Shown here in pieces: positions 1 to 6,166 of a DNA stretch of 6,166 nucleotides. The translations under genes and the position numbers were made by a program. How positions within the stretch are numbered: the stretch's first letter is position 1; the number at the start of each line of letters is the position of its first letter. The stretch is from a virus (lineage: Duplodnaviria; Heunggongvirae; Uroviricota; Caudoviricetes). Under the pieces are notes generated by a model. That model worked only from the letters and a program-made list of their open reading frames with translations. It did not search any database and was not told the DNA's origin. The stretch is from the IMG/VR virus record IMGVR_UViG_2675903536_000005. The stretch is one strand, 5' to 3'.

Positions 1-130
1 CAGGCTTCACTTTAAAGTACGGCGGGTCCGTGACTATCAGGTCAACAGAATTTTCGGGTAACGACCGGATAAATTCCAGGCAGTCGGCGTTGATTAATTC
101 ACGACTGGATATTTTTACAGTATTAAACAT
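1..130 (-). CDS. DNA methyltransferase, beta-class amino-MTase (N6-adenine or N4-cytosine), N-terminal 43 codons only; gene continues beyond window start
   Basis: Minus-strand ATG at 130-128, first in-frame start after upstream stops. Translation MFNTVKISSRELINADCLEFIRSLPENSVDLIVTDPPYFKVKP carries the DPPY catalytic motif near the N-terminus, the order typical of beta-class MTases (CcrM/M.HinfI-like N-terminus by recall). Absent from the ORF track because it is truncated at the window edge. Weak SD. Confidence 0.8.
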   Translation of the reverse strand, partial: MFNTVKISSRELINADCLEFIRSLPENSVDLIVTDPPYFKVKP

Positions 131-267
131 GGATCATTAAGCCTGTCTCTGATAGGCTCATACCGCTTTTGCGCAAAGCAGATGGGCCTGAGGTTTGCTT
201 GTGATCCGGACGCATGAGCAGATGGCTGGTGAGTGCCCCTAACACCCACCAGCCGCCCATTTACCAC

Positions 268-295
268 AAATAAAAAAGCCTTCAGGACTGAAGGC
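268..295 (-). terminator. Rho-independent terminator downstream of the small wHTH gene
   Basis: 7-bp stem gccttca(278-284)/tgaaggc(289-295) with 4-nt loop; on the minus strand it is followed by TTTTTTATTT (277->268). The stop codon of the 282..479 gene lies within the stem. Confidence 0.6.
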
Positions 296-479
296 GTCTG
301 TAACAACCGAACTGATAGTCTGCCAGACCCGCCATAACAAGCTGGGTCAGTATTAACTGGCAGCGTTCACGTGAAAGATAAGTATTCTGCGCAATCTCCC
401 CGACTGTCGCCGGTTCGGTGGCACTTAATTCATTAAACACCACTCTGGCGGTTTCGGTCATATCCTGCTGTTTCAGCAT
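282..479 (-). CDS. Small winged-helix/HTH DNA-binding protein (about 65 aa), function unknown; possible regulator paired with the downstream MTase
   Basis: ORF-track ORF 282..515 begins at TTG; the internal ATG at 479 is preferred because GGGA lies 7 nt upstream (aaaaGGGAaaaagacATG). Product MLKQQDMTETARVVFNELSATEPATVGEIAQNTYLSRERCQLILTQLVMAGLADYQFGCYRRLQS has a wHTH-like pattern (TVGEIAQ...LSRERCQLILTQLVMAGL). Exact family not recognised. Confidence 0.5.
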   Translation of the reverse strand: MLKQQDMTETARVVFNELSATEPATVGEIAQNTYLSRERCQLILTQLVMAGLADYQFGCYRRLQS

Positions 480-601
480 GTCTTTTTCCCTTTTCCGGTT
501 AACGTGACACACCAATAACTCTTGTCAAAAAAGCCAGCAAGCTGAAAGACCGGTATTCACCGCCGCCAGCGCGTTTACTGTACTGGACCGATTTCAGCCA
601 T

Positions 602-626
602 AAAAAAACCCGCTCGCGGCGGGTTT
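602..626 (-). terminator. Rho-independent terminator (minus-strand orientation) at the left boundary of the low-GC cargo
   Basis: GC-rich stem cccgc(609-613)/gcggg(619-623), 5-nt loop, extendable by 3 A-T pairs; on the minus strand it is followed by a run of 7 T (complement of A602-A608). On the plus strand only TTT follows, so it is mainly unidirectional. Confidence 0.55.
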
Positions 627-671
627 AAGCTGTGTGGCGAAGTAACCACTCTTAACACGATACAATAGTTT

Positions 672-700
672 TTGCGTACGCGTTAGTGGTTATGTAAACT
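672..700 (+). promoter_or_regulatory. Candidate sigma70 promoter for the cargo operon
   Basis: TTGCGT (672-677), 17-bp spacer, TG-n-TAAACT (693-700, extended -10-like), about 40 bp upstream of the ATG at 740. Sequence inspection only. Confidence 0.25.
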
Positions 701-739
701 TTCTCCATATAAAAACAGCAAAGAAGCGGATATTTTGAA

Positions 740-1768
740 ATGGCTACACTGGACGCATTCAGTAGAGTAATAACTCATCATACTATTACGATCGATACAC
801 AATACCGTACACAGAAAATTGATGATAGCATCAGATCGAACTGTGTTTGCCCGGTACCAACAATGCGTGAACTTGCTTCTAAAATAGTACGTTGTAAAGC
901 AATGATGCACAGTTATGAAAAAGGAGACTTAGTTTTAACTTTACAAGATGTAATATTCTTATCAAACAGAGCCGATAAAAAACCCAGCCATCTTGGTCTT
1001 TTAATTAATGCTGTAGATAAAAATGGAAGCACTACTGTATTAAAAAACATTAATACAGATGTTCGCACCGAAATATCACCAAAACATGAGGAAGGTGAAG
1101 GTTACGAAGTTTCTTCTCATATGATTATTTCTCTAGACGGAAATATGCGAACGTATGACATGAGTTTTATGCCAATACCAGGAGTTTCCACAGCAAAAAT
1201 AAATGGTTTCCTGAATAAAGTTCTCTTTAACGTAGCCAAAGATAATGAAGATATCTTTTCATGTCACACTTTAACAAATGAAGTGTCAAGTTTAACAAAG
1301 AAAAAAATAAAAGTATTATACAAGCCAGTCTTTGATATATCTGGAAAGTTAGATGAAGATTTGTTCAATAAAATAAATAAAGAAGGACTTTCTGATGTCG
1401 TTTTGGTAAAGAATGAATACAGAACTATTAATGCGCCAGATGTTAACGCGGCTATTATTCCTAAAGAAAGTACTTTACGCTTAGTACCAAACCATGGCCC
1501 CAACAATGTCCTTGGATGGATAAAATCTGTCTCAAACTTCTTTAAAGAAGATAAAAATGGAGGTTATGACTTAATAAAAATAAAATTCAAAGAGCCAGAG
1601 ACAGGATTCACAAGACAAGTTGACCTTCAAACTTCAAATGTAAGGCTGGATGGGCTGGAAAAAACATTTATCAAAAAGAGTGTAATAAATGGTTTTTCTT
1701 CGCGCTTAAAGGATTCTTATGATAGTATTAACATGGAGTTTGTGAATAAGATTATCGAGGTCATGTGA
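740..1768 (+). CDS. Cargo gene 1: 342-aa soluble hypothetical protein, candidate sensor/partner of the membrane protein (possible distant RexA-like)
   Basis: Long ORF in a markedly AT-rich block. No transmembrane segment, no signal peptide, no Walker A, no convincing nucleotidyltransferase or nuclease motif seen. Weak SD at the ATG at 740. Tightly linked to gene 2 (stop 1766-1768, next ATG at 1776). Confidence 0.7.
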   Translation: MATLDAFSRVITHHTITIDTQYRTQKIDDSIRSNCVCPVPTMRELASKIVRCKAMMHSYEKGDLVLTLQDVIFLSNRADKKPSHLGLLINAVDKNGSTTVLKNINTDVRTEISPKHEEGEGYEVSSHMIISLDGNMRTYDMSFMPIPGVSTAKINGFLNKVLFNVAKDNEDIFSCHTLTNEVSSLTKKKIKVLYKPVFDISGKLDEDLFNKINKEGLSDVVLVKNEYRTINAPDVNAAIIPKESTLRLVPNHGPNNVLGWIKSVSNFFKEDKNGGYDLIKIKFKEPETGFTRQVDLQTSNVRLDGLEKTFIKKSVINGFSSRLKDSYDSINMEFVNKIIEVM

Positions 1769-1775
1769 GGCTAAT

Positions 1776-2351
1776 ATGATTAGTATATTTTCACATTTAT
1801 TTAGACCGTTTGGTTACCTTTTCATTAAGGGAATTAGTGGTAAGTGCGCATACGATTTTTATGCACCTGCCGGGCTTGCTGTGATTTCTTTTTTTTACTT
1901 TTATTTATTTAAAATACCTACATCAGACCTACTAAAAGATGGCGGCTTTATTAAGTCTATATCTGGATTTGTATCAAATCTGCCAGGTTTTTATATAGCA
2001 GCTCTTGCAGCAATAGCCACTTTCAACAGAGAACAAATTGACTACCCTCTGATAGGAACTAATGGCACTCCTTTTATTAAAATTACACGAACAAAAGAAA
2101 ATGGTAGAATTGTTGACACTCAAGAGAAACTTACCAGAAGATTATTTCTGTGCATGTTATTTTCATTTTTAACTGCCCTCAGCATATGCATAGTGATTTT
2201 CAACGCTTTTATCACACCACTAATAAACATACTGAATAATGATATAGCAAACTGGTGCTATATCATTATCTTTTTATTCCTTACATGGCAAATGCTTGTT
2301 TCAACATTTTTTGGACTATACTATCTTGGTGATAGGATTCACATTAATTAA
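1776..2351 (+). CDS. Cargo gene 2: 191-aa integral membrane protein with four predicted TM helices (RexB-like topology), candidate effector/channel
   Basis: SD GAGG at 1767-1770 overlapping the gene 1 stop, 5 nt before ATG 1776. Hydrophobic segments YAPAGLAVISFFYFYLF, FVSNLPGFYIAALAAIATF, LFLCMLFSFLTALSICIVIFNAFI and WCYIIIFLFLTWQMLVSTFFGLYYL, with a charged loop between TM2 and TM3. Local pattern (LFxxIP...DG...IAALAAIATF) resembles lambda RexB (IAILIAALTF) from memory. Confidence 0.75.
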   Translation: MISIFSHLFRPFGYLFIKGISGKCAYDFYAPAGLAVISFFYFYLFKIPTSDLLKDGGFIKSISGFVSNLPGFYIAALAAIATFNREQIDYPLIGTNGTPFIKITRTKENGRIVDTQEKLTRRLFLCMLFSFLTALSICIVIFNAFITPLINILNNDIANWCYIIIFLFLTWQMLVSTFFGLYYLGDRIHIN

Positions 2352-2706
2352 CTACCATAATGGGGTTTATAGTTATTATTACACCGCTGATAAACCCCAT
2401 GGCAGTCTGCAATTCCTTCCTAATTGTGCCATCTGAACATCTTCTCTTCTTGGCAATAGTGCGTAATGAGATACCAATAACAAAGTGAGCTATGATCAGC
2501 TCATATTCCTCTGGTTTATACTTTCGCAACCGAGCCACACAACCGTCTATCATGATGCCTTCATCATCATCACACTGGAGACATGACTTTTTACCGTGTG
2601 GTAAAAGTCCCTTGAAACCAGCCGCTATCGGCTGCCAGTCCACACCACTATTTTCTGCTGCAGCCCATGCTCCCCAGCGGTCCAATACTTCATACATATC
2701 ACGCAT
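2344..2706 (-). CDS. Q: Late-gene antitermination protein Q (QuuD/phage-82-type short Q family)
   Basis: Translation from ATG 2706 (SD GGAG 7 nt upstream): MRDMYEVLDRWGAWAAAENSGVDWQPIAAGFKGL...CLQCDDDEGIMIDGCVARLRKY...CSDGTIRKELQTAMGFISGV...MVVN. The pattern matches the DLP12 QuuD-type Q protein as recalled (RWGAWAA, IAAGFKGL, CxDDxG, GCxARL, CSDG). The track ORF starts 5 codons earlier at TTG. Confidence 0.85.
   Translation of the reverse strand: MRDMYEVLDRWGAWAAAENSGVDWQPIAAGFKGLLPHGKKSCLQCDDDEGIMIDGCVARLRKYKPEEYELIIAHFVIGISLRTIAKKRRCSDGTIRKELQTAMGFISGVIITINPIMVVN
2360..2400. repeat. Perfect 11-bp inverted repeat with 19-nt spacer at the Q/cargo junction
   Basis: ATGGGGTTTAT (2360-2370) and ATAAACCCCAT (2390-2400) are exact reverse complements; it lies within the last codons of Q, immediately next to the convergent 3' end of cargo gene 2. 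Confidence 0.9.
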
Positions 2707-2723
2707 CAACTTTCTCCACAAAA

Positions 2724-3713
2724 TCAGGACAGCACACCAATCGCCAGCGCGCGATCGATAAAACGAAATATCAGCTCCAGTTGGGAACCATACTTCTCTT
2801 CAAATGCCACGGTATCCGCATGCAGTTCGTCATGGTGTTTTCTGCACAAAGGCAACACAAAAAGGTCATGCGCTTTAGTACCCATTCCACCCTGACCATG
2901 GCCAATCAGGTGATGCGGATCGTCGGCTGGCTTACCACAACATGCACACGGCTGCGTCTTAACCCAGCGCGTGTACTTTTCATTAACCCAGCGACGACGT
3001 TTGGGGCGTAACATAAAAGACTCCGGCGACTCCGGATCCACTTTCAGCGCCAGCACCTTTTTCGCTTTATCCTGGATAATGCTGGTGGCAGGAACCGAAG
3101 GCACAAGGTCACTCTCCCGGGTGACAGACGGCAAAACAGGCTTCGGTAATCTCAGGGCCTTACGGGCTGCACTTTCCGGTAAGGCATCCGCCAGGTCATT
3201 ACGAACCAGCCACCAGCACAGTTCCGGCATTGTCACAACGTGACTGTCATCAAAACCAAGATCACGGCGCACAACAGACAACACCCAGCGGGCACAGTTA
3301 TCCGTTGCCATTGATTCCAGCCGTTCCGTGAACTGGTCACGGAGAAGATTGTCACAGTGCCAGCACAGACGGATTGCGCCCGGAGCGTGTCGCATTGTGG
3401 TCATGTTCTCGCTGTGCCAGTCGGAATGAGGCCACTGGCAGCCTTTTTCACGAAGTAACCAGCTTTCAAGACATTCCACGCCACCAGCACGACGGATCAC
3501 TGCCTCATTGCGGAACACGGCCCGAACGGCAAGATCATCCGCCAGCGGTTGTGATGCCGCCGGAACGGCACCACTGGCGAAAGATGAATAACGTTCCGGC
3601 TCAGGCTCCAGCAGGACACGCCCCTGCATAAACAAGGGCATCAGCTCTGAACCTGGTCTGAACAATACGATCCCCATACGCGGGGCAATTTCAGGGGTCA
3701 GTAGTGCTCTCAC
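2724..3713 (-). CDS. DUF968-like prophage protein with C-terminal HNH-like Cys/His zinc motif (YdfU-like)
   Basis: C-terminus CACCGKPADDPHHLIGHGQGGMGTKAHDLFVLPLCRKHHDELH shows CxxC...HH...PLCxxHH...H, typical of HNH-type/DUF968 proteins found next to Q in lambdoid prophages. Start ambiguous: GTG 3719 (track), GTG 3713 (preferred, SD GAGG 5 nt upstream) or ATG 3677. Confidence 0.7.
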   Translation of the reverse strand: MRALLTPEIAPRMGIVLFRPGSELMPLFMQGRVLLEPEPERYSSFASGAVPAASQPLADDLAVRAVFRNEAVIRRAGGVECLESWLLREKGCQWPHSDWHSENMTTMRHAPGAIRLCWHCDNLLRDQFTERLESMATDNCARWVLSVVRRDLGFDDSHVVTMPELCWWLVRNDLADALPESAARKALRLPKPVLPSVTRESDLVPSVPATSIIQDKAKKVLALKVDPESPESFMLRPKRRRWVNEKYTRWVKTQPCACCGKPADDPHHLIGHGQGGMGTKAHDLFVLPLCRKHHDELHADTVAFEEKYGSQLELIFRFIDRALAIGVLS

Positions 3714-3720
3714 GGTCACC

Positions 3721-4536
3721 TCAATGAACGGTATCGAGCAGCTTTAACAGCTCAGGGAATCGGGATTCGAAGAAATGCGGCTGCGTCTCGCGCGGATTTG
3801 CAGGACTGGTGATGTTCTTGCCGAACATGCAGCCTTTCGCGGTCAGCGACCAGAATTTTTTGATGTTGTTAATCGCGGTACGACTGTATCGTTCGCGTTG
3901 TTCAACGATCCCCAGCTTCGCCATCTGGTGATATGCCTGATTAGCCGTCAGGCGGATACCATACTGCTTCAGCAGTGCACTCAGCGACAGCGTAGGGCGG
4001 CTTGAACCATCTGGCGCATCAGCAGGTGCATCAATGGCATAGATCGGCATAAGTTCAGGAAGACCAGCTACCTTTGATAATTTCTGGTATGCACCAAGTT
4101 TCGAGGAGTTTGACAGATTTAGAGTCTTTGCTGCTGATTCAAGCAGAATGACCCCGGATTTAATTTTGTCGGATGTGGTTTCTTCTGGTGATGAATTATG
4201 AAGCGCATCAAAAGTACGTATCACTTTTAAGCTGAATGCCGGGCTGATCCACATTGCATATGCATAGACCAGCTCTTTACAGACATACGTCCCACCATTG
4301 CGCCCCTGAATGGTGATGACAGGAATACTACGGGAATCTCCCGTAGTTTCTTCTTCCAATAATTCCACAAGAGCCTTCGTTTCAGGACGACGCATAAACT
4401 CGTGAACTTCCAGCGAACGGGAGGAGCGATTCTCACCAGCGGCAAGAAGAGCAGCTTTCTGAAGGTCGTTAAGACAGTAGTTAGATTCGAAGTACTGGCG
4501 CACAGAAACGCCATCAATTACAAGCAACTGATTCAT
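3721..4536 (-). CDS. KilA-N domain protein with KilAC-like C-terminal domain (putative phage antirepressor)
   Basis: ATG 4536 with SD GGAG 6 nt upstream (track ORF starts 4 codons earlier at GTG). N-terminal region has the KilA-N signature (ITIQGRNGGTYVCKELVYAYAMWISPAFSLKVIRTFDAL); C-terminal part (LSALLKQYGIRLT...KKFWSLTAKG) resembles Ant/KilAC C-domains by recall. Confidence 0.75.
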   Translation of the reverse strand: MNQLLVIDGVSVRQYFESNYCLNDLQKAALLAAGENRSSRSLEVHEFMRRPETKALVELLEEETTGDSRSIPVITIQGRNGGTYVCKELVYAYAMWISPAFSLKVIRTFDALHNSSPEETTSDKIKSGVILLESAAKTLNLSNSSKLGAYQKLSKVAGLPELMPIYAIDAPADAPDGSSRPTLSLSALLKQYGIRLTANQAYHQMAKLGIVEQRERYSRTAINNIKKFWSLTAKGCMFGKNITSPANPRETQPHFFESRFPELLKLLDTVH

Positions 4537-4698: not shown

Positions 4699-5094
4699 TT
4701 ACCGAGTTGCTAATTTGCAACTCGCTTTTTCGTACTTACTGATAGTGATCTCGACCTTCCCCTCCGGGATAACCGGTCCCCACTCCACCAGCATTCTTTT
4801 CACCTGACTGTCGTCTTCCCACACACCCGCGTGGGTCAGGGCGTCAAACAGCGCCTTGTTATAGTTGTCCAGATCACGGATCCGGTTATCCGGAGGAAAC
4901 AACACGATCTCCACTGAAGCAGGTGCCGACGTTGGTTTTGGCAGACGACGTAACTGCTCAACTATTGCTGCACACGCCGCGCTCTGGAATTTTCGCCCCG
5001 CCGCGCTTATCAGGCTCTTACCAGCAAACGCCCCTTTGTTGGGGTGTCGCCAGTACGTGTTCACGCTGGGCGGAAAAGGCAGGATCAGCTTCAT
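4699..5094 (-). CDS. rusA: RusA-family Holliday junction resolvase (crossover junction endodeoxyribonuclease)
   Basis: 131-aa product aligns by eye to E. coli RusA: PFPPSVNTYWRH (RusA LPWPPSNNRYYRH), RDLDNYNKALFDALTHAGVWEDDSQV (RusA [26 protein letters not shown]). Start ATG overlaps the upstream stop (ATGA). About 7 residues longer at the C-terminus than canonical RusA. Confidence 0.9.
   Translation of the reverse strand: MKLILPFPPSVNTYWRHPNKGAFAGKSLISAAGRKFQSAACAAIVEQLRRLPKPTSAPASVEIVLFPPDNRIRDLDNYNKALFDALTHAGVWEDDSQVKRMLVEWGPVIPEGKVEITISKYEKASCKLATR
4703..4730 (+). terminator. Terminator-like hairpin plus T5 in plus-strand orientation, embedded in the 3' end of rusA
   Basis: 8-bp stem cgagttgc(4703-4710)/gcaactcg(4717-4724), 6-nt loop, followed on the plus strand by cTTTTTcg (4725-4732). 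It overlaps the last 8 codons of the minus-strand rusA ORF. No plus-strand gene is evident, so function is uncertain. Confidence 0.3.
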
Positions 5095-5417
5095 ACTTTC
5101 AGGCCTCTCTCATGTAACCAATGGGCTGCACGCAGCCTGGCGTTTTCCTCACCGGCAAGCAGTGAGCGGATAATCCCGACCGCCTCGCTGTCGTCGTCCT
5201 TCACCACGGTATGAAGCGTGATCCCCCGGGCCACACCACGCTTTATCGTGATGACGCCTTTTTTCTCCAGTGCGCGAAGATGCTCCACCGCTGCATTCAC
5301 TGAACGGTATCCCAGCATGGTTGCCACCTCCTGATTGGTTGGCGGGAAGCCACGTTCTTTCTGATAAGAAATCAGCATATCCAGCACCTGCTGCTGGCAT
5401 TGAGTTAACGTCGTCAT
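5091..5417 (-). CDS. LexA N-terminal DNA-binding-domain-like protein (108 aa), lacking the S24 peptidase domain
   Basis: QQQVLDMLISYQKERGFPPTNQEVATMLGYRSVNAAVEHLRALEKKGVITIKRGVARGITL parallels LexA residues about 5-70 ([62 protein letters not shown]), including the recognition helix S-x-NAA-x-EHL. The ORF ends after 108 aa with no Ser/Lys protease domain. ATGA start/stop overlaps on both sides. Confidence 0.8.
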   Translation of the reverse strand: MTTLTQCQQQVLDMLISYQKERGFPPTNQEVATMLGYRSVNAAVEHLRALEKKGVITIKRGVARGITLHTVVKDDDSEAVGIIRSLLAGEENARLRAAHWLHERGLKV

Positions 5418-6067
5418 GCCGCCATCTCCCTGACCAGTTTTTCCGCCTGCTGGCGAACCTGCGCCAGAAACGCCTCACCACATGCCTCAAGTTCATCGCG
5501 CCCGATGTAGCTGATTGCCGGTCCCTTCCAGGTCTTGTCGAAAACAGCAATAGCACCAGCGAAGAAAGCGCCTGTCGGCACCTGCTTCTCATCTTTCGGG
5601 ATAAACCAGGCAGGCAGTTCAAAACCAATACGCCCGCGAATAAAAGCAATATGATCTGCATCTTCCGGCCACCACACTTCGCTGGTGGCAGCTTTGATCA
5701 GGAAAACATAGCGCCCGCCTTTATCACGCATGGCACTGGCATGTTTCATGATGTAACGCATGCCGGTGATGTATTGCCCCTCATGCTGACTGGCGCGGCT
5801 GTATGGGGGATTACCAAAGGCAGCACCTTTAAGCTCCGCAAGACGTTCTGACCAGTCATGCGCCAGCGCGTTGTCTTCCGCCGTGTAATACGCGGCACAT
5901 TTGGCGTTATCACCGTCAGTGAACAGATCCAGAACAAACGGGCCAAACAGGGTGTTAATTCCCCAGAAAATGTTGTCCGGCGTGCGCCACTGATCGCCCA
6001 CTTCCTTCAGTTCATGGGCTGGTTTGTTCCGCAGTTCCACCAGCGCCTGGCAATATTTATTACTCAT
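5414..6067 (-). CDS. Phage Dam-family DNA N6-adenine methyltransferase
   Basis: Translation from ATG 6067 (MSNKYCQ..., GGGGG upstream) contains WRTPDNIF, NAKCAAYYTAEDNAL and the catalytic FGNPPY motif followed by WWPED and FIRGRIGF, matching the phage N6-adenine MTase family (T1 Dam-like) as recalled. The track ORF extends to a GTG at 6100. Confidence 0.85.
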   Translation of the reverse strand: MSNKYCQALVELRNKPAHELKEVGDQWRTPDNIFWGINTLFGPFVLDLFTDGDNAKCAAYYTAEDNALAHDWSERLAELKGAAFGNPPYSRASQHEGQYITGMRYIMKHASAMRDKGGRYVFLIKAATSEVWWPEDADHIAFIRGRIGFELPAWFIPKDEKQVPTGAFFAGAIAVFDKTWKGPAISYIGRDELEACGEAFLAQVRQQAEKLVREMAA

Positions 6068-6147
6068 TAAGCCCCCACGTAATTCCCTGACAGATACCAC
6101 TCTTCACCCGATGCAGCGCGCTTGCTGCTTTTCCGTAAGCACCGCTC

Positions 6148-6166
6148 CTGTCTCTTTATACACATC
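6148..6166. other. Tn5 mosaic-end / Nextera adapter-like sequence at the window terminus (probable library artefact or contig end)
   Basis: ctgtctctttatacacatc equals the 19-bp Tn5 ME CTGTCTCTTATACACATCT except for one inserted T and the missing final T, and it abuts the window end exactly. Confidence 0.6.

Follow-up and report, generated by a model that had tools for sequence, protein, structure and literature searches.

A slot for interchangeable cassettes between antiterminator Q and a late-promoter-like block in lambdoid prophages, and a covarying hairpin at the junction of Q and PDC-M53

The window analyzed here is a 6,166-nt stretch of DNA (IMG/VR record IMGVR_UViG_2675903536_000005) that is part of a lambdoid Escherichia coli prophage, its closest relatives being E. 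coli prophages with 95 to 98% identity. In this window, the gene for the antiterminator Q (2344 to 2706, minus strand) meets the oppositely oriented gene pair of PDC-M53, a PADLOC candidate defense system whose mention in the literature is a bare listing, and a perfect inverted repeat, called H1 here, lies at their junction. On comparison with about 40 related loci (designated by L numbers), Q was found to be separated from a conserved, late-promoter-like block by a slot with exchangeable contents. The explanation that we favor, with some reserve, is that this slot receives interchangeable anti-phage cassettes, all transcribed toward Q, of which PDC-M53 is the one present here, and that the hairpin at the junction is maintained by selection.

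The same layout was seen in every Q relative that was fetched: next to Q came two or three cassette genes oriented toward it, then the block (601 to 690 in the window), and then late genes. The late genes were either holin and endolysin directly or a 65-amino-acid (aa) open reading frame (ORF) and a methylase followed by tRNAs, with stx1A in the Shiga toxin (Stx) 1a phage. At least 10 different convergent cassettes, plus empty sites, were found between Q and the block. PDC-M53 as in the window was present in 15 complete genomes (≥99.6% identity), and a PDC-M53 allele with 65% identity (class B, see below) was present in nine genomes. The other contents were DS-1 (a YejK-like nucleoid-associated protein and its partner; NCBIfam NF053868/NF053869), two distant DS-1 variants, unknown cassettes in the O104:H4 Stx2a prophage (two genes; L007, 1990 to 3451) and in the Stx1a phage (three genes; L064, 1332 to 3439), three further types (two of three genes, one with a TIGR04255 protein and the other with an MBL hydrolase, and one of two genes), a DUF262/NsnA-like and HEPN pair located beyond a C5-methylase, and the nmpC porin in the DLP12-derived region of a phage 434B recombinant. 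Empty sites were searched for with an artificial query joining the block to the 3' part of Q. Q and the block were adjacent in 17 genomes; in one such site (L012), the Q stop codon was about 17 nt from the block, and only about 39 nt took the place of the cassette.

Conserved flanks, many cargos (among them DS-1, PDC-M53, and the DUF262/NsnA-like and HEPN pair), and empty sites were thus all found at this locus, as in a prophage defense hotspot. Judged by Q similarity, the slot is present in approximately a quarter of complete E. coli genomes; roughly 1,400 E. coli genomes have a Q of this family. Experimental validation of the DS series and of a YejK nucleoid-associated domain comes from the DefensePredictor paper (PMC13092281). 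The ≥10 slot cassettes include one experimentally validated defense system, one PADLOC candidate, and several without a family match. PADLOC and Pfam searches with the Stx1a, O104:H4, L065, and L067 cassettes gave no match, and across L007, L064, L065, L067, and L068 the only match was to one MBL-fold protein. Because of their position in the slot, the unmatched cassettes are candidate new defense systems, and the slot offers a simple guilt-by-position route to further ones.

Both boundaries of the cassette were located by alignment with the relatives. On the right, other E. coli Q genes aligned with the window Q only from approximately 2390 to 2392 upward, and identity to the DS-1-linked Q fell in consecutive 15-nt steps from 14/15 to 6/15 and 4/15. 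On the left, conservation stopped at approximately 687 to 690. The variable unit therefore spans positions 689 to 2389, each uncertain by about 3 nt, and holds the candidate cargo promoter region, PDC-M53A, PDC-M53B, a second hairpin (H2), the left arm of H1, and the codons of the Q tail. Qs beside other cassettes share codons 1 to about 105 with the window Q, and codons 106 to 120 (approximately) with the stop codon (2344 to 2389) travel with PDC-M53.

After the conserved ...LQTA[M/L]GF, a different Q tail was found for each cassette type, and the cargo-free sites also had their own. The tail was ISGVIITINPIMVVN in the window, IEGILLIIKPL beside class B PDC-M53, VDGCLAMLAYSMA beside DS-1, IDAVIYIIHG and INGVMYMLK beside the DS-1 variants, LDGVLSML beside the O104:H4 cassette, and IDGCICLILS at an empty site. 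Only a short hydrophobic run after GF-x-G was common to these tails, and Q varied in length from 113 aa (in L007) to 122 aa, a natural variation that shows that the tail tolerates change. The last codons of Q are inherited together with the cargo; cassette exchange can thus cut inside an essential regulator. The body of Q did not follow the cassette type: the window Q was 91% identical to the Q beside a DS-1 variant (99.3% over the first 150 nt) and 78% identical to Qs beside other PDC-M53 cassettes. Therefore, cassettes have been swapped by recombination that ended, on the right, within the 3' portion of Q. The simplest mechanism of exchange would be homologous recombination between the conserved flanking sequences. 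If it takes place between the conserved body of Q and the block of about 90 bp, the right breakpoint would accordingly fall inside Q, just after the Gly-Phe-Ile codons (about 2390), and each cassette would bring the final 8 to 18 codons of Q with their stop codon and, in most cases, a junction hairpin of its own.

At the PDC-M53 junction, the convergent 3' ends overlap by 8 bp (2344 to 2351), as read directly from the two stop codons: TAA at 2349 to 2351 on the plus strand for PDC-M53B (1776 to 2351) and TAA as the complement of 2344 to 2346 on the minus strand for Q. At the junctions of the other cassettes in the slot, the range was from a 21-bp overlap to a 30-nt gap; in the class A lineage, to which the window allele belongs, the genes may have been squeezed together until they overlapped by 8 bp. 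The left arm of H1 (ATGGGGTTTAT on the plus strand, 2360 to 2370) reads ATA AAC CCC AT on the Q strand and encodes Ile-Asn-Pro-Ile of the cassette-borne Q tail. The right arm (ATAAACCCCAT on the plus strand, that is, ATGGGGTTTAT on the Q strand; 2390 to 2400) encodes Met103-Gly-Phe-Ile of Q. The arms are exact reverse complements over 11 bp, with a spacer of 19 nt (2371 to 2389), and H1 begins 9 nt past the PDC-M53B stop codon, in an untranslated stretch of the cargo mRNA. The right arm is native Q sequence: the identical 11-mer occurred in the Q of L069, which has unrelated neighbors, and 10 of the 11 bases were found in L003, where Q lies beside DS-1. The left arm lies in the cassette-borne part of Q.

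A sequence-only reading of the window had reported the convergence, the 8-bp overlap, and the perfect 11-bp repeat with its 19-nt spacer at 2360 to 2400, and all of these were confirmed. Its placement of the repeat in the C-terminal codons of Q was also correct; its "last 14 codons" were codons 103 to 116 of 120, with four further codons and the stop codon after them. The statement that no terminator lies between the genes holds in the narrow sense that there is no intergenic space and that our pattern scan for terminators does not call H1.

A repeat of this size is rare by chance. With a perfect inverted repeat of ≥11 bp and a loop of ≤30 nt as the criterion, 3.7% of dinucleotide shuffles of the whole window contained one (mean, 0.05 per shuffle), and only 22 of 20,000 local shuffles of 201 nt did (0.1%). 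When the Q protein was kept fixed and its codons were recoded synonymously, such a repeat arose in 1.1% of recodings with uniform codons and in 0.06% with approximate E. coli usage, because the rare codons GGG, ATA, and CCC are required.

Further PDC-M53B alleles beside Q were found by searching genome, viral, and metagenome collections, and they fell into two classes, A and B. Class A comprised the window, a metagenome allele (86% identity), Enterobacter soli (82%), IMG/VR alleles (78 to 79%), and one allele at 65%. H1 was kept in all of them with an arm spacing of exactly 19 nt, including Enterobacter soli and four IMG/VR or metagenome alleles; the arm pairs were GGGGTTTAT/ATAAACCCC or GGGATTTAT/ATAAATCCC, and in L037 the stem was perfect over 13 bp. 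The length of the spacer was constant and its sequence poorly conserved. In 15-nt blocks compared with Enterobacter soli, identity was 13/15 over the right arm (2406 to 2392), 8/15 over what is mostly spacer (2391 to 2377), and 13/15 over the left arm (2376 to 2362).

The changes between alleles preserved pairing. One G:C pair was exchanged for A:T, as in L035, through a synonymous change in each of two Q codons (Gly GGG to GGA and Asn AAC to AAT), and an outer pair was exchanged from A:T to T:A. Across five distinct sequences, 90.8% of the cells of H1 were paired, compared with 28 to 55% when the partner columns were slid. The covariation score was 0.262, compared with 0.152 for shuffles, and was reached in 9 of 500 shuffles; in this small sample, two pairs were changed on both sides. 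Pairing was thus kept through compensatory changes in diverged homologs, as expected of a conserved hairpin, and the same was found for H2. Since the repeat was kept across diverged alleles with the same spacing and with compensatory changes, and since it depends on rare codons, the H1 hairpin is likely to be under selection.

Class B alleles had, instead of H1, a short-loop hairpin (TTAAGCCC-loop-GGGCTTAA) across both stop codons, which in Limnobaculum and one viral contig was a canonical terminator with a T run. Its stem sequence ATTAAGCCC (ATT AAG CCC) encodes Ile-Lys-Pro of the Q tail, at the same tail positions as the class A Ile-Asn-Pro (ATAAACCCC, ATA AAC CCC). The left arm in class A therefore corresponds to one arm of the cassette's own terminator. 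Evidently, this arm has switched partner in class A, so that it pairs with the upstream Gly-Phe-Ile codons and no longer with the decayed downstream arm. H1 in class A is a cassette-borne arm (the Ile-Asn-Pro codons) paired with the native Met-Gly-Phe-Ile codons 19 nt away.

At the level of RNA, H1 would end, stabilize, or insulate the convergent transcripts, chiefly the cargo mRNA, as canonical terminators do at the same place in other cassettes. We put this forward tentatively, as somewhat short of an even chance. An exact-stem search of the Q/cargo junctions returned perfect-stem hairpins for 8 of 10 cassette types and for none of the empty sites, and those in L016, L054, L065, and L007 were canonical terminators with T runs. 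PDC-M53 loci outside prophages ended in ordinary terminators and had no H1-like repeat.

Several observations weigh against this explanation. H1 is not a canonical terminator on either strand: an intrinsic terminator has a G+C stem, a loop of about 3 to 8 nt, and an adjoining U tract, and H1 was not reported by the pattern scan because its loop is 19 nt and no T run follows the stem (the sequence after the stem is GGCAGTCTGC on the plus strand and TATGGTAGTT on the minus strand). The G:U pairs in H1 (four on the plus strand and two on the minus strand) did not tell the strands apart. The covariation of H1 comes from five distinct sequences and probably reflects only two evolutionary events. 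In addition, both arms lie in coding sequence, where Ile-Asn/Lys-Pro is possibly constrained at the protein level. The two DS-1 variants overlap Q without an obvious junction hairpin, so a hairpin is not obligatory in the slot. Finally, the assignment of the block as a late promoter is drawn from position and pattern and does not match the published pR' of phage 82.

A second hairpin, H2, bears on the strand on which H1 would act. H2 has a perfect 14-bp stem and a 6-nt loop (2236 to 2269, with a tail to about 2280; CTTTTTATT follows on the plus strand) and lies inside PDC-M53B, approximately 90 nt from H1. The pattern scan flagged it as terminator-like on both strands. It occurred only in class A alleles, where 95.7% of its cells were paired and four pairs had compensatory changes, and its covariation was reached in none of 500 shuffles. 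The U-rich tract after it on the plus strand also encodes a Phe/Leu-rich membrane segment. One possibility is that H2 terminates transcription only where the RNA is untranslated (antisense); another is that it attenuates expression of the membrane protein. The asymmetry between G:U and A:C did not settle to which strand H1 and H2 belong.

It is therefore worth weighing that H1 is selected but acts on the Q-strand RNA, for example by modulating how stable the Q message is or how its 3' end is processed, or by pausing early transcription as it leaves Q, with H2 as the counterpart for the other transcript, so that interdigitated terminators each lie in the opposite gene. Folding predictions gave the Q strand the more stable hairpin (−24.1 kcal/mol, z of −3.35, compared with −18.4 kcal/mol, z of −2.6, for the plus strand), with an extra outer stem (ACUGCCAU/AUGGUAGU). 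Past the stem, the Q-strand RNA is moderately U-rich, the junction terminator of the O104:H4 cassette has its T run on the Q strand, and H2 is backed independently by covariation. However, H1 on the Q strand lies inside a translated frame, where ribosomes would melt the hairpin, whereas on the cargo strand it is untranslated, just past the stop codon. The G:U counts slightly favor the plus strand, and a canonical U tract is found on neither. We consider action on the Q strand unlikely, although it is the strongest of the alternatives.

The coding position of both arms raises a simpler alternative, namely, that the Gly-Phe-Ile and Ile-Asn-Pro motifs merely happen to have complementary codons and that H1 has no function of its own. 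Almost every Q allele has Gly-Phe-Ile, tails of the PDC-M53 type have Ile-Asn/Lys-Pro, both arms are in frame in Q, and the small covariation sample leaves room for such a by-product. The synonymous recodings speak against it, as the protein sequence seldom yields the repeat and does so only with the rare codons; so do the scarcity of the repeat in local shuffles and the presence of a second covarying hairpin about 90 nt away in the same alleles. Moreover, the exchange of G:C for A:T required two synonymous changes, for which there is no protein-level explanation. A coding by-product is thus improbable.

The sequence-only reading had taken the repeat for an insertion scar or recombination junction. 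The second part of this view stood: homology to other Qs ends at about 2390 to 2392, at the inner edge of the right arm of H1. As that reading had suggested, cargo-free relatives were compared, and L012 and L013 had neither this Q C terminus nor the repeat; the repeat was thus not exposed as a native element of the Q region, a result that would have contradicted an insertion junction. A scar in the strict sense (a mobile-element terminal repeat, or a site at which a site-specific recombinase delivered the cargo) is very improbable, despite the coincidence of the breakpoint with H1 and the absence of the repeat from cargo-free relatives. One arm is native Q sequence and occurs in Q alleles with unrelated neighbors. 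No matching arm or target-site duplication was found at the other boundary (about 687 to 690) in the alignments with relatives and the empty site, no recombinase or transposase was found among the ORFs of the window, and nine other cassette types share the slot without H1. In addition, H1 persisted, with compensatory change, through 35% divergence of the cargo protein. For the same reasons, H1 does not belong with mobile-element terminal repeats. The suggestion that the insertion may have remodeled the C terminus of Q was right in that the tail is cassette-specific and overstated otherwise, since all tails keep a hydrophobic stretch and empty sites have a tail of their own.

A binding site for a dimeric regulator of Q or the cargo, with two 11-bp half-sites about three helical turns apart, would fit the constant center-to-center spacing of 30 bp and the conservation of the arms but not of the spacer; it is equally improbable, as the compensatory changes maintain pairing between the arms and not a fixed half-site, our analysis turned up no candidate binding protein, and ordinary short-loop hairpins lie at the same place in other cassettes.

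The block at the far end of the slot (599 to 690, minus strand) was found at every locus; in empty sites it came immediately after Q, and lysis genes or tRNA and toxin genes lay immediately downstream of it. Because it directly follows Q in empty sites and precedes late genes, the block is likely a late promoter module, and its pattern suggests a late promoter, a Q-utilization site, and an early terminator (pR'/qut/tR'-like). Read on the minus strand, its features are, in order, a half-conserved −35 position (nnnACT), a conserved 18-nt stretch, a TAnnnT hexamer, a short variable stretch, a leader, and a terminator. The conserved stretch reads CTAACGCGTACGCAAAAA and contains the palindrome GCGTACGC (674 to 681). 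The −10-like hexamer (667 to 662) varied among TATTGT, TACAGT, TATCGT, TATCAT, TATTAT, and TATCTT, in the inner positions only. The leader (GTTAAGAGTGG...) was fully conserved, and the terminator consists of a strong hairpin (626 to 606), which, like H2, fits the intrinsic-terminator pattern, and a T run (605 to 599). A short RNA of about 55 nt is probably made from the late promoter.

When the block was compared with pR'/qut/tR', its position, the TAnnnT hexamer, the leader, and the strong terminator fit, and the −35 position was poor. The published pR' of phage 82 has a TATAAT-like element with an extended −10 and GCC at +15 to +17, features that were not matched, and an 82-type label was therefore rejected. 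A literature search for the block sequence GTTAAGAGTGG returned nothing relevant. Rfam searches of the window (1 to 2800 and 540 to 760, relaxed thresholds) matched Trp leader, isrK, and ErsA far below their gathering scores; these matches were terminator driven and are attributed to chance. The T run of the block terminator marks a second mosaic breakpoint. Two alternative continuations were seen to the left of it (about 595 to 605, compared with L002, L004, and L005): holin and endolysin, or the 65-aa ORF and a DNA methyltransferase. The window has the 65-aa ORF and the start of the methyltransferase on the minus strand, to the left of the 626 to 606 hairpin; the ORF is winged-helix-like, and its branch also has tRNAs in Stx phages.

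A candidate promoter for the cargo straddles the left boundary (672 to 700, plus strand), with TTGCGT (672 to 677) in the block and TAAACT (695 to 700) in the cassette, 17 nt apart. A −10-like hexamer was found at the same spacing in three of the four other aligned cassette types. The promoter is given only as a candidate because it was below the threshold of the consensus scan. The antisense interference that had been envisaged between the late operon and the cargo appears misplaced, since the late-promoter-like block (601 to 690) lies beyond the cargo and points away from it. Therefore, if the pR' assignment is right, only early read-through of Q can collide with cargo transcription.

As reported previously, P2-like prophages and P4-like satellites carry defense hotspots (Rousset et al. 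2022, PMC9122126; later P2/P4 work, PMC13586616). The slot described here resembles them in its conserved phage flanks, its short length, and the many exchanged anti-phage cassettes, a large share of them uncharacterized. It differs in belonging to a lambdoid family with a PF06530 Q, in lying between Q and the late promoter, and in having a boundary inside the coding sequence of an essential regulator, the C-terminal codons of which are supplied by the cassettes. Our literature searches found no description of this slot as a defense hotspot, which holds for the searchable literature and is not proof that none exists. A paper on prophage Pas small RNAs concerns other Q families.

The porins nmpC (DLP12/qsr') and lc (phage PA-2) are classic morons between Q and lysis genes. 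The nmpC locus, in the 434B recombinant with the DLP12 region, has the same slot, the same convergent orientation, and the conserved block downstream; its cargo, however, is a porin and not a defense system. Bidirectional or intrinsic terminators between convergent genes likewise place a hairpin where two units meet, and class B and most other cassettes are exactly of this kind. H1, in contrast, has a 19-nt loop and no U tract, lies wholly inside one gene, and takes one arm from conserved codons. In lambda, the paQ antisense RNA acts against Q, and int is retroregulated by sib. There, too, a regulator is influenced at or beyond its 3' end, and convergent cargo transcription into Q could act similarly, by analogy only; no evidence of RNase III-type processing or of a dedicated antisense promoter was seen here. 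The location of an inverted repeat at a cassette's 3' end also recalls integron attC sites and transposon ends. This reading was rejected: neither an integrase nor a transposase was found, the other end has no such repeat, the cassettes share no motif, and one arm is host-gene sequence.

Within the papers that could be searched, two points seem to be new: a cassette boundary inside Q with cassette-borne tails, and a junction hairpin of which conserved Q codons form one half and which compensatory synonymous change has preserved. Both are refinements of known kinds rather than a new kind. H1 in itself is a small regulatory detail, and the context of the slot is more useful. In the Stx1a and O104:H4 Stx2a phages, the slot lies between Q and the stx-proximal late promoter; if the junction hairpins do control read-through between cargo and Q, the expression of defense would be linked to the lysis-lysogeny state, possibly together with toxin expression. 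A broader proposal, which we regard as doubtful in its full extent, is that the slot between Q and the late promoter of PF06530-type lambdoid prophages, including Stx1a and Stx2a phages, is an uncharted anti-phage hotspot of mostly unknown systems and that its convergent layout is functional. The cassette would provide both the end of Q and the junction hairpin, so that a lysogen could express it without antisense transcription into Q; upon induction, early transcription through Q would shut the defense off, as a self-immunity switch.

The Q of the window (120 aa) matched Pfam PF06530 (E = 6.9e-44; 149 bits, cutoff of 26), with residues 1 to 113 on profile positions 1 to 113 of 118, and its RefSeq relatives are annotated as antiterminator Q family. 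The start codon is the ATG at 2706, as in the annotation of these relatives. Its position is also that of a PF06530-type Q: in the relatives, Q was followed by a cassette or by nothing, then by the block with its terminator, and then by holin and endolysin or tRNA and toxin genes. Similarity to Q21 (PDB 6P18) was weak (E = 0.04). Residue 42 is Cys in the window Q (KKSCLQ; codon at 2581 to 2583), just before the conserved CDDD motif. Arg occupies this place in the close E. coli alleles that were fetched (KKSRLQ or KKSRIQ); in more distant alleles, the residues that precede the Arg differ. A 2,198-bp contig labeled as an Erysipelotrichaceae metagenome-assembled genome (L014) had a PDC-M53B and junction identical to those of the window and a Q that differed only at residue 42; it is most likely a misbinned fragment of an E. 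coli prophage.

PDC-M53A (740 to 1768, plus strand; PADLOC PDLC04696, E = 7.8e-32) and the membrane-protein gene PDC-M53B (PDLC04699, E = 1.7e-54) are co-oriented and 7 nt apart and match the PADLOC profiles for PDC-M53. The pair is AT rich, with approximately 33% G+C compared with approximately 50% in the flanks. Upstream of Q, all on the minus strand, the window encodes a DUF968/HNH protein (2724 to 3719), a KilA-N protein (3721 to 4536), RusA (4699 to 5094), a LexA-like protein (5091 to 5417), and a Dam-type methylase (5414 to 6067). A perfect 15-nt inverted repeat (GAAGCAGGTGCCGAC/GTCGGCACCTGCTTC) has one arm in the RusA gene (4916 to 4930) and the other in the Dam methylase gene (5574 to 5588), 643 nt apart. 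The final 19 bases (6148 to 6166, CTGTCTCTTTATACACATC) resemble the end of a Nextera transposase adapter, and all genome matches end at 6147; the end of the window is probably an adapter remnant of short-read assembly.

Two related loci carried further features of their own. In the cargo-free prophage L012, a scabin-related ADP-ribosyltransferase and a subtilase-family AB5 toxin B subunit lie directly past the block (1087 to 2373), placed like stx in Stx phages. In E. coli strain WAT (L070, 421 to 3407), an IS21-family element is inserted in Q and splits the gene in two, with an O104:H4-type cassette downstream.

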